Shown here: positions 8,783 through 63,728 of the stretch, in pieces
How positions within the stretch are numbered: position 1 is the stretch's first letter
Layout: each line of letters begins with the position of its first letter
Source: a virus
Taxonomy: Duplodnaviria > Heunggongvirae > Uroviricota > Caudoviricetes
DNA length: 64,000 nucleotides
IMG/VR virus record: IMGVR_UViG_3300032308_002078
Span: 16,073-80,072 of that record
Strand: one strand, 5' to 3'
Notes under the pieces: model-generated
Seen by the model: only the letters and a program-made list of their open reading frames with translations
What the model was told of the DNA's origin: nothing
Databases searched by the model: none
Program-made: the position numbers and the translations under genes

Positions 8783-8830
8783 TTTGGCCTTATAAAATAA
8801 GGATGTTATATTTATGTCATAATAAAGGTT
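8783..8830 (+). promoter_or_regulatory. conserved host-type promoter motif (class 1)
   Basis: GATTTGGCCT-N13-GATGTTATATTTATGTCATAATAAAGGTTATG; TTTG and TAtaTTTa fit the Bacteroidetes -33/-7 consensus. Confidence 0.5.
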
Positions 8831-9304
8831 ATGGCATTACATAGAATAATTGAAACACACAAAGTAAATATTTTAGGTCAAGAAATTACTTATACTAATA
8901 AGTTTCTTAAGTATTCTAAAAGTACATCTTATGGTTTTAAACCATCTAAGAGTTTAGTTAGTAATGGTGTTTATGTATTTAAATACACTTATGAACATCC
9001 GCAATTACCACCTACATTATTTATAGCTCCTGTATCAGGTAAAAAATATATTGTTCCTACTTGGAAAGAAGTTCATCCTGAAACTACTTTAGCTGATATC
9101 AATTGGATTAAACCAACCAAAATAGAGGCTCCAGTCGAAAAAGAAACTTGGAAGTTTGAATCATCAAGTGAAAAAGGATTATTTTATAAAGTTACTAAAC
9201 AGGGTTCAGAACTAAAATGTAACTGTTCTGGTTTTTTTAGATGTAAAGATAGAAGTAAAGGTTGTAAACATGTTCAAGAAGTTCGTAAACAATTAAGCAA
9301 ATGA
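8831..9304 (+). CDS. SWIM-type zinc-finger protein
   Basis: C-terminal KCNCSGFFRCKDRSKGCKHV (CxC...CxH). Confidence 0.35.
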   Translation: MALHRIIETHKVNILGQEITYTNKFLKYSKSTSYGFKPSKSLVSNGVYVFKYTYEHPQLPPTLFIAPVSGKKYIVPTWKEVHPETTLADINWIKPTKIEAPVEKETWKFESSSEKGLFYKVTKQGSELKCNCSGFFRCKDRSKGCKHVQEVRKQLSK

Positions 9305-9519
9305 TAGTAGATAAACGTCCTATAAAAGACAAAATTGAAATTGATTTGTTGGGTCCTGAAGGTAATGCTTTTACACTATTGGGTATCGCTAAGGATTTAA
9401 GTCATAAATTAGGTGAGAATTGGGATGAAGTTCATGCTAATATGACAGCGGCTGATTATGAGTGGTTAATTCAAACTATGGATCACTATTTTGGAGATTA
9501 TATAATAATGTATAGATAA
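9301..9519 (+). CDS. hypothetical protein
   Basis: 72 aa ORF with overlapping start and stop. Confidence 0.3.
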   Translation: MIVDKRPIKDKIEIDLLGPEGNAFTLLGIAKDLSHKLGENWDEVHANMTAADYEWLIQTMDHYFGDYIIMYR

Positions 9520-9935
9520 TGGCAGAAAAAGGTAGACCTAAAGAAACACCACCTGTTCAACTTGATAAGTGGACTAGAGAATTTTATGAAATTCCAACCA
9601 AACCCGAATTAGGTTGGAGAATGAATTGGTACTATGATAAAAGTAAAAATTCAAATGGTCCTTACAAAACAGAAATTTCATATCCTAAAGGTTACAAACA
9701 TGAAAAGTTTAAAGCTGAAAAAGGTAAAGCATATAATGGACAATCAGTAGTGATGGTATTTAAAACATCAGACCGTTCAAATGCTAAAACTAAAATGAAA
9801 GTTTGGAGTCATGAAAATATAGATTATATTATTTCAGCTCCTTCATTACCTGGTATACCTGATACAGCTGTTGTCTTAGAAACAGCAATAGGTGAAGAGT
9901 TTATTGAATTTTTCAAGTCTAAGTATTCCTTATAA
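9519..9935 (+). CDS. hypothetical protein
   Basis: 138 aa ORF. Confidence 0.4.
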   Translation: MAEKGRPKETPPVQLDKWTREFYEIPTKPELGWRMNWYYDKSKNSNGPYKTEISYPKGYKHEKFKAEKGKAYNGQSVVMVFKTSDRSNAKTKMKVWSHENIDYIISAPSLPGIPDTAVVLETAIGEEFIEFFKSKYSL

Positions 9936-9951
9936 TATTTATAATAAAATT

Positions 9952-10614
9952 ATGGCAACTAGAGGACAAATAGCTTATTTAGCAGATCCAAATACAATAT
10001 TTTCAATTTATGTTCATTATGATGCTTACCCTGAAGCTTTAGGTAAAACTTTAAACACTAATTTCAATTCAGATGAACAAGCAAGTAGCTTAGTAATGGA
10101 TGGTAATGATATTAGATTCATTGATGATGATGGAACAGTAGAACGTTTTGATAAAGGTGGAGCTAAACAAATTAAAGGCGAAGAACCAGAAGAATTATTT
10201 AGTGAATTATATTCACACGCTGACAATGCAGCAGCTGATTATGTTTATGTTTGGTTAGAAGATAAATGGGTTGCTCTTAAAATGAGTAAGGGTAGACAGT
10301 ACTTTGTAGGTACTTTATTAGACCAAATAAGAAAAATAGAACCAACTATGGAAAATAAAGATAAAATGAAAGAAGGTTATTATGGTACTACTAATGTAGA
10401 GAACCATATTCAAACCTTAGGATATGATTCATTTGAAGATTTCTTCAGTGACAATCCAGGTGGTGAAGAAGCTTTAATTAGCTGGATTGAAAGTGTTCCT
10501 GAGTTTAGAAAAATGCTTATGCAACAAGGAATGATGGAAGCTAAAAAAGATAAAGAAGAAATGGATGAGGCGTTTGTTCGTCAAATGAAATATAAAGCAG
10601 GTATCATAAAATAA
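9952..10614 (+). CDS. hypothetical protein (start revised to the ATG after the ATATTTATAATAAA motif)
   Basis: ORF-track start 9892 lies inside the previous gene; a conserved promoter motif at 9937-9951 precedes Met 9952 (MATRGQ...). Confidence 0.4.
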   Translation: MATRGQIAYLADPNTIFSIYVHYDAYPEALGKTLNTNFNSDEQASSLVMDGNDIRFIDDDGTVERFDKGGAKQIKGEEPEELFSELYSHADNAAADYVYVWLEDKWVALKMSKGRQYFVGTLLDQIRKIEPTMENKDKMKEGYYGTTNVENHIQTLGYDSFEDFFSDNPGGEEALISWIESVPEFRKMLMQQGMMEAKKDKEEMDEAFVRQMKYKAGIIK

Positions 10615-10635
10615 AAAAACAAATTAAATAAAAAA

Positions 10636-10666
10636 GAGGGGTTTGGCTTTGTCAGACCCCTTTATT
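10636..10666 (+). terminator. rho-independent terminator
   Basis: GAGGGG..CCCC(T) hairpin followed by T-run; contains the GTTTGGCTTT promoter upstream element. Confidence 0.5.
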
Positions 10667-61737: not shown

Positions 61738-61739
61738 TT

Positions 61740-62567
61740 ATGCTATTAAAAAAAGGTGATAATAATGAACAGGTAAAACAACTTCAAATTAAATTAGGAG
61801 TTGACCCTGTAGGTAACTTTGGTCCTAAAACTGAAGAGGCAGTAAAAAAGTATCAAGCCGCTAATGGATTAGTAGCAGATGGTATAGTAGGGGATGGAAC
61901 TTGGAATAAAATTATGGGTACAGCACCAGTAGCAGCTCCTGCTCCTGCTGTTATTCCTCCTAGTTCATTTAAACTAGACAAATTAAAAGGACATATTCCT
62001 GATGCTGTATTAGCTCAAATTCCTGATACTGCTGCTAAATTTAATATTACTAATCCTTTAAGATTAGCCCATTTCTTGGCCCAGTGTGGGCATGAATCAG
62101 GAGGATGGAAAGCAACCTCAGAAAATTTAAATTATAGTTCTAAAGGTTTAATGGGTATTTTTGGAAAATATTTCCCAACTTTAGCTTTGGCAGAACAATA
62201 TGCTCGTAAACCTGAAGCTATTGCTTCTAAAGTTTATGGAGGTAGAATGGGTAATGGTCCTGAAGCTACTAAAGAAGGATTTAAATTTAGAGGTCGTGGT
62301 TATATCCAATTGACAGGTAAAGATAACTATAAAGCATTTGATGCTTTTGTTCCTGAAGAGATTATAAATAATCCTGATTTAGTTGCTACTAAATATCCTT
62401 TAATGTCTGCTGCTTGGTTCTTTAATAAGAATGGTCTTTGGGCTATCTGTGATAAAGGAGCTGACCAAGGAACAGTAACAGCAGTGACTAAAAGAGTAAA
62501 CGGTGGAACAATTGGTTTACCTGATCGTATTAAACATTTCAACGAATATTATAATTTATTAAAATAA
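61740..62567 (+). CDS. endolysin: N-terminal peptidoglycan-binding domain plus GH19 (lysozyme/chitinase-like) catalytic domain
   Basis: PG_binding_1 pattern QVKQLQIKLGV..DG.FGPKTEEAVKKYQAANGLVADGIVG; GH19 motifs AQCGHESGGW and RGRGYIQLTGKDNY. Confidence 0.7.
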   Translation: MLLKKGDNNEQVKQLQIKLGVDPVGNFGPKTEEAVKKYQAANGLVADGIVGDGTWNKIMGTAPVAAPAPAVIPPSSFKLDKLKGHIPDAVLAQIPDTAAKFNITNPLRLAHFLAQCGHESGGWKATSENLNYSSKGLMGIFGKYFPTLALAEQYARKPEAIASKVYGGRMGNGPEATKEGFKFRGRGYIQLTGKDNYKAFDAFVPEEIINNPDLVATKYPLMSAAWFFNKNGLWAICDKGADQGTVTAVTKRVNGGTIGLPDRIKHFNEYYNLLK

Positions 62568-62944
62568 TGAGTGAATTTCAATTAAAAGAAGGACAAGGGT
62601 ATATTTACATAGGTGAATACTTTCACAAGTTTGGAGGTGTAGTACCTACAGAAAAGAAAATAGGTAAAATAGATGACCTATTAAAAATCCCTCAAATAGA
62701 TGATTACGCCTTTAGTTTAGATTTTCATACCCCAGACATTTATCTTGTTGAGAATGTAGAGGTTCTTTATACTGCCTTAACATCAGTGTTAGGTCATGAT
62801 CTAATTAAAGAAGATTGGTTCGCGGATTCAGATAATGATTTAAAAGAAAGAGTAGCTAGCTTTATGAAAGCTTTTGGTTATATTGAGGTATGTGATGTAG
62901 ATGGAGATGGTATCCCTGACCATCTAGATAACACTATAGGTTAA
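62567..62944 (+). CDS. hypothetical protein with C-terminal Ca-binding DxDxDG motif
   Basis: CDVDGDGIPDHLDN (thrombospondin-type-3/EF-hand-like loop). Confidence 0.3.
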   Translation: MSEFQLKEGQGYIYIGEYFHKFGGVVPTEKKIGKIDDLLKIPQIDDYAFSLDFHTPDIYLVENVEVLYTALTSVLGHDLIKEDWFADSDNDLKERVASFMKAFGYIEVCDVDGDGIPDHLDNTIG

Positions 62945-63015
62945 AATCAACGCTGTCCATGACTATGGACAGATAGTTTAATATAGGCGCTATATATAAG
63001 TTTTATGGCGCCTAT

Positions 63016-63465
63016 ATGTATCGGTATATGGACGTTAATAAAATATTTGATTTGTTCAATAATGAGGAACCACCTTCATTAAAGGAGAAATTTCAACAAG
63101 TTGATGCTCTATTAGATTATAAAAATCATCCTTTATTCTGGGTTGGTATGTTTAAAAAATTTATTTACAATCATAATTTATTTAATGACCAATTACTTAA
63201 ATTCTTTGAAAAATTAGATGAAGGTTTAGATGTAGTAGATATAGATAGAGCAGGTGAATTTGTTGTGTTTAATAGAGCTTATAGTTACATTGAAAAAGTA
63301 GATCCAAAAGACTTGGTTTGCCAAGAGGCTTTATATAGATTCGCAGATACCCATTTAAAAACAGCTTTAGAATTATCAATTAACTACTTCCAGGAAATGG
63401 AAGAATATGAAAAATGTTCTCATCTTAAGCAAAATTTAGAATTTGTAAAACTCCTTTTGACCTAA
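63016..63465 (+). CDS. hypothetical protein
   Basis: 149 aa. Confidence 0.3.
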   Translation: MYRYMDVNKIFDLFNNEEPPSLKEKFQQVDALLDYKNHPLFWVGMFKKFIYNHNLFNDQLLKFFEKLDEGLDVVDIDRAGEFVVFNRAYSYIEKVDPKDLVCQEALYRFADTHLKTALELSINYFQEMEEYEKCSHLKQNLEFVKLLLT

Positions 63466-63467
63466 GT

Positions 63468-63728
63468 TTGGCTCCGTTGAAATACAATGTTATATTGATA
63501 TTACAAGGGTTTAGGAAAAAAGGATACAAAATGAAAAATAGAGAAATAATAATGAGACGGTTGGAACGAGCCGAGGGTGAAGTAGAGAAAATATACTTCT
63601 TCTTAAATCGTGGTGGATCAAGGGAACAGGTAGAGGAAGTGATTATTACACTACGTGAAGCAATCAATGACGCTAAATCGTTTGTACAACAGGAACCATT
63701 AGGTCCCGGAGAAATTAATCAATATTAA
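63468..63728 (+). CDS. hypothetical protein
   Basis: 86 aa. Confidence 0.3.
   Translation: MAPLKYNVILILQGFRKKGYKMKNREIIMRRLERAEGEVEKIYFFLNRGGSREQVEEVIITLREAINDAKSFVQQEPLGPGEINQY

Follow-up and report, generated by a model that had tools for sequence, protein, structure and literature searches.

The question raised by this locus is how transcription is organized along a stretch of phage genome whose genes all point the same way. We analyzed 64,000 nucleotides (the window) of the IMG/VR virus record IMGVR_UViG_3300032308_002078 (positions 16,073 to 80,072), with ca. 31% G+C and a non-coding share of only 9%, in which the + strand carries every open reading frame (ORF) of any length and the - strand none. 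The window comes from an uncultivated myovirus-like phage of freshwater Bacteroidota. A previous annotation made from the letters and the ORFs (here, the sequence-only reading) had proposed two recurrent promoter classes, class 1 with two elements and class 2 with one. What we observed directly are the two motifs, how they are laid out and conserved, and which genes follow them. The reading that we favor, to which we give a probability of about 0.65, is that class 1 would be a strong early promoter recognized through the host primary sigma factor and set in cassettes resembling the promoter-early stem-loop (PeSL) cassettes of T4-type phages, and that class 2 would be a late promoter with a -10-type element only, probably needing a phage factor.

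The window was extended by ca. 20 kb per side using near-identical contigs, giving ca. 100 kb of a genome type whose whole length is estimated at 100 to 176 kb. IMG/VR holds several hundred relatives (>600), in contigs of up to 176 kb. A DNA search against sequenced phages gave no match, and the best protein matches did not exceed 31.6% identity, so there is no cultured relative from which promoter data could be borrowed. We also found no usable description of Bacteroidota phage promoters in the literature.

Class 1 is a rigid, two-part motif with the consensus (G)TTTGGC(T/C)-N18-TATATT(T/A)A. The pattern TTGG-N19-TATMTT matched 27 times in the window, always on the + strand, compared with 1.0 match expected over both strands. 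All 23 positions listed in the sequence-only reading were true copies, and four more, with boxes at 5879, 24409, 29847, and 51396, complete the set. The variable spacing that it had described (N14-20) did not hold, since the distance is invariant: when TTGG..TATATT was scanned at k = 12 to 27, there were 26 copies at k = 19 in the window and at most 4 at any other k, and in the first 80 related loci there were 257 at k = 19 and no more than 16 elsewhere. Along the same lines, in 2.97 Mb of related loci the composite was found on the gene strand 602 times and on the other 28 times. An unbiased count of 12-mers in the window placed ATGTTATATTTA, AATATTTATAAT, and AATAAAGGTTAT at the top, with every copy intergenic and on the + strand.

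Among 441 unique copies from the relatives, information was found in G-37, T-36, TTGG, C-31, T-30, T-15, T-13, and TATATT(T/A)A, and the spacer sequence had no information content. The combination of a fixed spacer length with a free spacer sequence points to an RNA polymerase holoenzyme site, unlike a recently duplicated repeat. The invariance of T-12, A-11, T-8, and T-7 was preset by the search pattern TATMTT and is therefore not independent, but flanks outside the pattern were also conserved (T-15 in 24 of 27 window copies and A at -5 in 26 of 27). Simple recent duplication was considered as an origin of class 1 and rejected, because most pairs of copies share <20 exact bases and their spacers carry no information. 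Near-identical copies had been pointed out before and do exist: positions 36686-36724 and 49882-49920 share 39 exact bases.

With TTTG placed at -36..-33 and TAnnTT at -12..-7, the predicted +1 falls 12 nt after the first T of the box (box+12), which is an A in 23 of the 27 window copies. The sequence-only reading had counted ATAATAAA as a third promoter element; given that it begins exactly at box+12, it is better understood as the start of the transcript. For every unique copy in the window and the relatives, we then determined how far the box lies from the first ATG that begins an ORF of 40 codons or more. The values showed a sharp spike at 12 (15 unique cases), almost none at 13 to 19, and a broad distribution at 20 to 43, the pattern expected of leaderless versus leadered mRNAs. 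The ATG coincides with the predicted +1 in four window genes (10678, 29859, 32493, and 54436) and in the clamp-loader gene upstream of the window.

Several features are consistent with a bacteroidotal host. A 630-aa protein at 55213-57105, behind a class 2 variant motif, combines a cohesin domain with a C-terminal type IX secretion system (T9SS) sorting domain (Por_Secre_tail), from which its export by the host T9SS would follow. Shine-Dalgarno cores precede 13 of 102 genes, with 12.1 expected in random windows, so they are not enriched, and internal genes show a preference for A at -3. Relatives were binned with Chitinophagaceae and Saprospiraceae metagenome-assembled genomes (MAGs). On the grounds of the T9SS sorting domain, the lack of Shine-Dalgarno enrichment, and the MAG binning, the host is probably a member of the Bacteroidota.

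In Flavobacterium johnsoniae, the -7 element lies at -12..-5, the start is 4 to 5 nt later, and G-5 is nearly invariant (PMC6847099). The ATG spike at box+12 fits this geometry. Class 1 agrees with the Bacteroidota sigma-A grammar (sigma-A-Bfr; -33 TTTG / -7 TAnnTTTG) in the position of TTTG at -36..-33 and of TAnnTT at -12..-7, in their 20-nt separation (TTTG-N20-TA is present in all window copies; the published range is 19 to 21), and in a predicted start 4 nt after the box. It departs from that grammar in that the base at -5 is A and never G and that T-6 is present in about half of the copies; its -33 element is extended to GTTTGGCY and far better conserved than that of the host, with absolutely fixed spacing. 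The fit to the Bacteroidota consensus that had been proposed stood for the element placement, the rigid spacing, and the A at the predicted +1, but not for -5, and a sigma-70 grammar fits equally. As a host-type -33/-7 promoter, class 1 is well supported in silico.

Class 1 copies come with further parts. A strong hairpin followed by a T-run was found in 5 of the 27 copies (boxes 10666, 26463, 32481, 45388, and 46551), with folding energies of -13 to -22 kcal/mol and z-scores of -4.4 or lower. In all five, TTTGG/TTGGC lies in the 5' (ascending) arm, the hairpin occupies the promoter spacer, and the T-run abuts the -7 box. The coupling of terminator and promoter suggested before therefore exists in 19% of the copies rather than in "many," and with the TTTGG in the 5' arm and not the descending one. 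These spacers hold 5 of the ca. 8 strong intergenic terminators of the window, including the top three of the 26- to 46-kb region. Among the relatives, the corresponding stretch reaches a folding energy of -12 kcal/mol or better in 87 of 458 copies (19%), a figure that reflects the folding criterion alone and includes no check for a T-run.

The second part is the leader, which is A-rich, begins with AUAAUAAA, and ends with AAAUAAARGUU-AUG. The sequence A[AG]GTTATG precedes 15 of 24 starts linked to class 1, none of the 10 linked to class 2, and 7 of the 68 others, and in the relatives it has a strand bias of 839 versus 41. It had been described as common to both classes; confined as it is to class 1-linked starts, it belongs to the class 1 cassette. 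Its spacing is wrong for Shine-Dalgarno pairing. The RGTTATG context presumably resembles the GUUAUG core of the T4 RegA operator, a likeness that we take as a lead only.

The PeSL cassettes of T4-type phages join a strong early promoter to a stem-loop between or over its boxes and end at the next start codon; they sit among ORFans and serve as recombination points (Arbiol et al. 2010, PMC2839356; Comeau et al. 2014, PMC4122927). Class 1 cassettes are likewise repeated and intergenic, lie amid small ORFans in a plastic region where many gene-order breakpoints between relatives fall at them, and would combine a host-type early promoter with a putative stem-loop terminator over or between the boxes, ending at the next start codon. 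Of the 27 copies, 21 are located in the 25- to 55-kb region, among ORFs mostly of <150 aa. In comparisons with the related loci L001 and L002, ca. 13 of 23 synteny breaks fell within 80 nt of a class 1 box and several alignment blocks started at a cassette, a count confounded with gene boundaries. The differences from PeSL are the -33/-7 instead of -35/-10 grammar, the presence of the stem-loop in only ca. 19% of copies, and the lack of a Shine-Dalgarno sequence, the 3' end being AAATAAARGTT-ATG or a leaderless ATG at +1.

Class 2 is a single element, (t)AATATTTATAAT, with no upstream partner. The sequence-only reading had counted at least 11 copies, and the decamer ATATTTATAA indeed gave 11 exact matches in the window, all on the + strand and intergenic, versus 2.2 expected; in the relatives, there were 269 on the + strand versus 31 on the other. 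The consensus of 203 unique copies was taATATTTATAAnnaA, and the logo had no conserved upstream element. Orthologues of ORF 49149 in 17 relatives (57 to 96% amino acid identity) kept the core ATATTTAT with changed surroundings and at distances of 13 to 27 nt from the ATG, and this variation favors a DNA signal over one that positions the ribosome. Distances from the first A of the core to the start codon had spikes at 12, 13, and 14 (18, 7, and 5 cases), a dip at 15 to 18, and a spread at 19 to 40; the spike at 12 to 14 fits a start site just downstream of the motif. In the syntenic relative L081, the motif is kept before four tail-region operons, and the homing-endonuclease genes are absent together with their motifs. 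The conservation before orthologues, the near-leaderless starts of its own, and the position at operon heads support class 2 as a promoter separate from class 1, as had been suggested.

The genes behind the two classes differ. Class 1 heads small ORFans, PolB (with a spacer terminator), the GroES/GroEL unit, the clamp loader, the phosphoesterase/kinase/ligase set, RecA-like and MoxR-like ATPases, the VWA protein, the DUF932 protein, two tRNA sub-arrays, and a ca. 180-nt terminator-ended unit at 51.4 to 51.6 kb. Class 2 prevails in the tail, baseplate, and lysis regions, where it heads three tail-fibre operons, a baseplate-wedge operon (L169:6774), an unannotated operon (L290:16280), and the holin/endolysin unit, as well as the T9SS-sorted protein with a variant motif. 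It also precedes 4 of 5 homing-endonuclease genes, the HNH gene at 4489 following 3644 without a motif of its own.

Promoter activity, the form of polymerase reading each class, and the timing are what we infer from these patterns, and functional claims on either motif class rest on sequence throughout. Host RNA polymerase with its primary sigma factor would read class 1 from the start of infection, beginning at the A located 12 nt after the first T of the box. In ca. one-fifth of copies an intrinsic terminator hairpin would fill the spacer, with the -33 element in its 5' arm, and downstream there would be either the standard A-rich leader (AUAAUAAA...AAAUAAARGUU-AUG) or an AUG at +1 itself. 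For class 2, the start is predicted 12 to 14 nt from the first A of the motif, and this late promoter would need a phage-made specificity factor.

The closest parallel for class 2 is found in the late promoters of T4, which carry TATAAATA at -13..-6 and are read by gp55/gp33 with the sliding clamp. As in T4, there is one AT-rich element of 8 to 12 nt lacking a -35-type partner, the predicted start is a few nucleotides downstream, the genes that follow are virion, lysis, and homing-endonuclease genes, and the phage has a T4-like PolB and clamp loader. However, the coding strand of class 2 reads TATTTATA, the reverse complement of TATAAATA, so the genes would have the T4 late element on their opposite strand; on the + strand, TATAAATA (10 copies in the window) occurs at about the chance level. 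A gp55/gp33 homologue was not found among the ORFs scanned here (ca. 100 kb). In the sequence examined, a DksA/TraR-type zinc-finger protein at 3305-3610 is the sole transcription factor found and the sole candidate RNA polymerase-binding factor.

Several observations weigh against the reading that we favor. G at -5 of the class 1 box was found in none of the 27 window copies and in 8 of 441 from the relatives, and T-6 is limited to 15 of the 27. Class 1 can also be read as a good sigma-70-type promoter, TTGGCT-N17-TATATT with a partial TG extension, and several copies were picked by a generic scanner; on the side of the favored reading, the scan for E. coli-type promoters returned 112 sites versus 111.6 expected, showing no enrichment. 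As the two grammars overlap in space, the sigma factor cannot be identified from the motif alone, and the assignment to Bacteroidota grammar rests on the inferred host; the bin of one relative is "Rickettsiales." Nine class 1 boxes include the 8-nt class 2 core ATATTTAT, so the classes are not fully separate, and the excess of synteny breaks at cassettes may only mirror breaks at gene boundaries. Class 2 also heads a thioredoxin/HPRT/GTP cyclohydrolase unit (L088:674), and a variant heads a glycosyltransferase unit (L084:4666). Finally, no sigma, gp55/gp33-like, or RNA polymerase gene was present among the ORFs scanned in ca. 100 kb (window plus ca. 20 kb on each side), several upstream ORFs being outside that scan; given that no specificity factor was found, the dependence of class 2 on a phage factor and its lateness, both part of the original proposal, are inferred.

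These points give some weight to the alternative that class 2 is simply a weaker promoter of the host primary sigma factor, with a -7-type element only and no phage factor, its timing being set by template copy number or read-through. In most F. johnsoniae promoters, the -7 box is strong and a -33 element is all but missing (PMC6847099), and class 2 shifted by one base to the right becomes TATTTATA, which keeps T-12, A-11, T-8, and T-6; the lack of a phage sigma among the ORFs scanned and the two copies heading metabolic operons are in agreement. However, T-7 and G-5 are absent in that register and T-12 in the other, the 12-nt consensus AATATTTATAAT, held in 203 unique copies, exceeds any host box, and the partition of class 2 to virion, lysis, and endonuclease genes is clean. 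We regard this explanation as unlikely, albeit a serious contender.

It is less probable still that class 1 represents a middle class, in which GTTTGGCY would be the site of a phage activator or of a sigma-remodelling system like MotA/AsiA, rather than a site of the unmodified host holoenzyme. The -33 region of class 1 (G-37, T-36, C-31, and T-30) is far richer in information than host -33 elements, and the -7 box lacks the host G at -5. In addition, the sister clade L036-L079 (e.g., L038 upstream of position 10001) is without TTTGGC and has the motif TTG-nn-TGACC-N13-TA(A/T)ATTTA, found 108 times on the + strand versus 6 on the other, in which GGC is swapped for nnTGACC; the added TGACC is located ca. 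13 nt upstream of the -7 box, and the MotA box of T4 middle promoters is 12 +/- 1 bp from the -10 element (PMC2988021). On the other hand, the two clades share a TTG placed exactly at -35..-33, the position canonical for host sigma region 4, the upstream element of the window is at the host -33 and not at -30, and no MotA or AsiA homologue was identified here. The T4 early "uber" promoters are, like class 1, over-specified compared with host promoters and yet read by unmodified host polymerase (PMC2988021), and the window has no other visible candidate for an early promoter class.

We consider it improbable that class 2 acts on RNA, as an enhancer of translation initiation, as an operator bound by a translational repressor, or as a site where a nuclease processes long read-through transcripts. 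The motif is strand-specific, AU-rich, and located 9 to 27 nt before start codons in a phage whose host would not depend on Shine-Dalgarno-led initiation, but among orthologues it lies anywhere from 13 to 27 nt before the ATG, two copies are >100 nt from any ORF, the distances are bimodal with the spike at 12 to 14 expected of leaderless versus leadered transcripts, and the motif is found at operon heads and not before internal genes. Hardly credible is a minus-strand, T4-type late promoter firing antisense into the upstream gene, because, in spite of TATAAATA lying on the - strand in 11 of 11 copies and of the T4-like replication and baseplate genes, the - strand has no genes, the sequence flanking the motif is asymmetric and linked to the start codons downstream, and the late-type operons would be left without any promoter.

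Beyond an early class 1 and a late class 2, we tentatively propose a joint reading in which a phage-encoded late specificity factor would recognize class 2 and redirect the unusual Bacteroidota RNA polymerase to the 12-nt AATATTTATAAT without a -33 partner, both classes would routinely give leaderless mRNAs, and the class 1-specific RGUUAUG would be an operator for translational control of early genes, as with T4 RegA. If true, the class 2 factor would be the first late-transcription system defined for these phages of freshwater Bacteroidota, a family both large and widespread.

Phage early promoters that mimic or exceed the host consensus, promoter-terminator cassettes, and late promoters without a -35-type element are all well known. 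What is new are the consensus sequences themselves, the finding that a large uncultivated family of Bacteroidota phages uses them, a -33/-7 cassette without Shine-Dalgarno pairing, and the discrete leaderless subset. The promoter-plus-terminator architecture of T4-type coliphages would recur with quite different promoter grammar, and a discrete class of leaderless mRNAs is predicted in a phylum where translation starts independently of Shine-Dalgarno pairing. As an annotation result, this is solid and useful; it overturns no concept and describes no new kind of system. It provides a testable map of 27 early-type and ca. 12 late-type sites with predicted start nucleotides for a family without a sequenced cultured relative, and the motifs could aid annotation (operon heads and temporal class) and serve as strong portable promoters for Bacteroidota genetics.

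All class 1 copies in the window are on the + strand. Upstream of the tail region, the copy at 5856-5886 (box 5879; absent from the earlier list) has its -33 TTGG within the 3' end of the homing-endonuclease ORF 5188-5871, and the next ORF starts at GTG 5892. It is followed by 6421-6451 (ORF 6469, 105 aa, 25 nt past the box), 8784-8814 (ORF 8831, 157 aa), 10643-10673, with a terminator hairpin at 10638-10660 in its spacer and a leaderless ATG (10678) at the predicted +1, and 10807-10837 (ORF 10859, 59 aa). At 24386-24416, a copy with the box TATATTAC (24409), also missed before, precedes ORF 24434; 26440-26470 has the terminator hairpin GGTTGGCTTTCGCCAACC plus T-run in its spacer, before ORF 26487. 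The previously unlisted copy at 29824-29854 (box 29847) would be leaderless, with ATG 29859 at the predicted +1, 30710-30740 precedes ORF 30762, and 32458-32488, with a terminator hairpin in the spacer, has the ATG of a phosphoesterase (32493) at the predicted +1. The copy at 34116-34146 lies before ORF 34168, followed by the RNA ligase at 34519, and that at 36671-36701, before a RecA/AAA-like ATPase (36729), is the one with 39 exact bases in common with the 49867 copy.

From there on, 38998-39028 precedes ORF 39050, 41346-41376 ORF 41399, 41818-41848 ORF 41875, 42383-42413 ORF 42432, 42978-43008 ORF 43039, and 43314-43344, with the variant box TATCTTCA, ORF 43378. The promoter at 44119-44149, before the MoxR-like ATPase 44175, is kept before the orthologue in the closer relatives. 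Terminator hairpins fill the spacers of 45365-45395 (ORF 45417) and of 46528-46558 (TGGCCTTCGGGCCA plus T6; VWA/DUF2201 protein 46571), and 49867-49897 precedes the DUF932 protein 49930. As had been noted, class 1 also heads tRNA sub-arrays: 50756-50786 is 27 nt upstream of tRNA-Leu 50806 in the first sub-array, and 53023-53053 is 64 nt upstream of tRNA-Leu 53110. Between them, the copy at 51373-51403 (box 51396), new in this analysis, heads a ca. 180-nt unit ending at the terminator 51557-51585. The last two are 54401-54431, predicted to be leaderless with ATG 54436 at the predicted +1, and 63468-63498, with the box TATATTGA, before ORF 63531.

The unit at 51408-51585 is located between tRNA-Gly and tRNA-Phe, ends in the strong terminator GCCCGATTCACAAGATCGGGC plus T6, and is 90 to 98% conserved in L002 and L203; it holds only a 31-codon ORF and could be a small RNA or encode a micro-protein. 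A 20-nt leader, GTTCTTTGACGTATGAGAAA, is identical at 51587-51606 and 53089-53108, directly before tRNA-Phe and tRNA-Leu(tag), and could serve the tRNA sub-arrays as a signal for processing or as a secondary promoter. Unusually GC-rich non-coding blocks at 41162-41345 and 42025-42380, upstream of class 1 promoters, are 70 to 83% conserved in the closest relatives (L001, L002, L004, and L015) and carry repeated TTAGATC, CACGTG, and GCGCGC; they may be a protein-binding region or a replication origin. These GC-rich spacers had no Rfam match, and RNAalifold gave no convincing covariation; an Rfam scan of the window returned tRNAs only.

The class 2 copies are also all on the + strand. Two of them precede homing endonucleases near the start of the window: 3635-3644 directly before the HNH ORF 3644, and 5166-5179 before ORF 5188. 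Those at 9935-9948 (ORF 9952, phrog_1987), 11847-11856 (849-aa tail protein 11874), 15333-15346 (tail-fibre genes 15352 and 17121), and 19482-19495 (ORF 19507 and tail-fibre genes 19796 and 22057) are kept in L081. A tandem pair (18600 and 18620; 18600-18629) is followed by a ca. 90-nt structured segment with a terminator and then by ORF 18724. Further along, 27389-27402 precedes the GIY-YIG-type homing endonuclease 27408, and 49136-49145 is 13 nt before ORF 49149 and kept before its orthologues in 17 relatives. The variant ATATTTATTA at 55195-55204 is 18 nt before the T9SS-sorted cohesin-domain protein 55213, and 60597-60606, 13 nt before ORF 60610, heads a unit with the holin 61324 and the endolysin 61740.

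Behind the tandem motifs, the ca. 90-nt segment folds at -23.5 kcal/mol (z = -2.3), ends with CCCAAG...CTTGGGTTTTTT, and may be a small RNA; the block that contains it (18597-19470) is wholly absent from the syntenic L081, and the RNA-like part is 85% identical in L015. The homing endonucleases also touch both classes. Their ORFs end in ...VWKYK*, and the corresponding coding sequence GTTTGGAAATATAAA provides the -33 element of the class 1 promoter of the next gene (window 5856-5886; L084 1606-1640), so each endonuclease cassette has a class 2 motif at its 5' side and a class 1 promoter at its 3' side. In L084, the ATG of the clamp loader downstream of the endonuclease is at the predicted +1. 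At 27273-27356 there is a promoterless 5' remnant of thymidylate synthase (ILDEQYQRLLQDIIDFGVDKKDRTGTGFL*), followed by a class 2 motif and the free-standing GIY-YIG-type endonuclease 27408-28082, which overlaps the start of the complete thyA (28061-29140); the arrangement looks like the scar of an endonuclease-driven gene conversion. A group I intron in thyA was rejected, as Rfam gave no match, the gene at 28061-29140 has its own N-terminus, and 27273-27356 is the 5' thyA remnant.

The gene content resembles that of T4-like phages: PolB, clamp loader, gp25/gp6-like baseplate, RNA ligase, polynucleotide kinase, homing endonucleases, and 24 tRNAs, the last at 50.8 to 55.2 kb. Tail and tail-fibre genes span 11.9 to 24.4 kb. 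The window also has HNH and GIY-YIG-type homing endonucleases, thymidylate synthase, a phosphoesterase/polynucleotide kinase/RNA ligase set, a MoxR-like ATPase with its VWA partner, a holin, and an endolysin. The upstream extension adds a QueE-like protein, dCTP deaminase, a T4-family PolB, GroES/GroEL, the clamp loader, and glycosyltransferases, as well as ORFs assigned to HPRT and GTP cyclohydrolase I by eye alone, and the downstream one adds gp25-like and gp6-like baseplate wedge proteins, a 1,790-aa protein, and a primase. In L088 (82-2989, ca. 10 to 20 kb upstream of the window), a QueE-like gene, the GTP cyclohydrolase I (by eye), and a dCTP-deaminase-like gene point to 7-deazaguanine or some other modification of DNA bases, and a modified G could affect how the G-containing -33 element is recognized.

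Three tandem 13-nt repeats, AAGTT(G/A)TAAACA(T/C), occupy 24650-24700, within the 71-nt gap before the GDSL-lipase-like/tail-fibre-like ORF 24709, a gap with neither promoter class. Positions 1-10794 of the window match a Logan assembly contig of run ERR2848531 (L085) at 100% identity, and the proteins encoded there recur in ENA lake metagenome assemblies (ERZ28593696), which would be helpful for locating matching metatranscriptomes.

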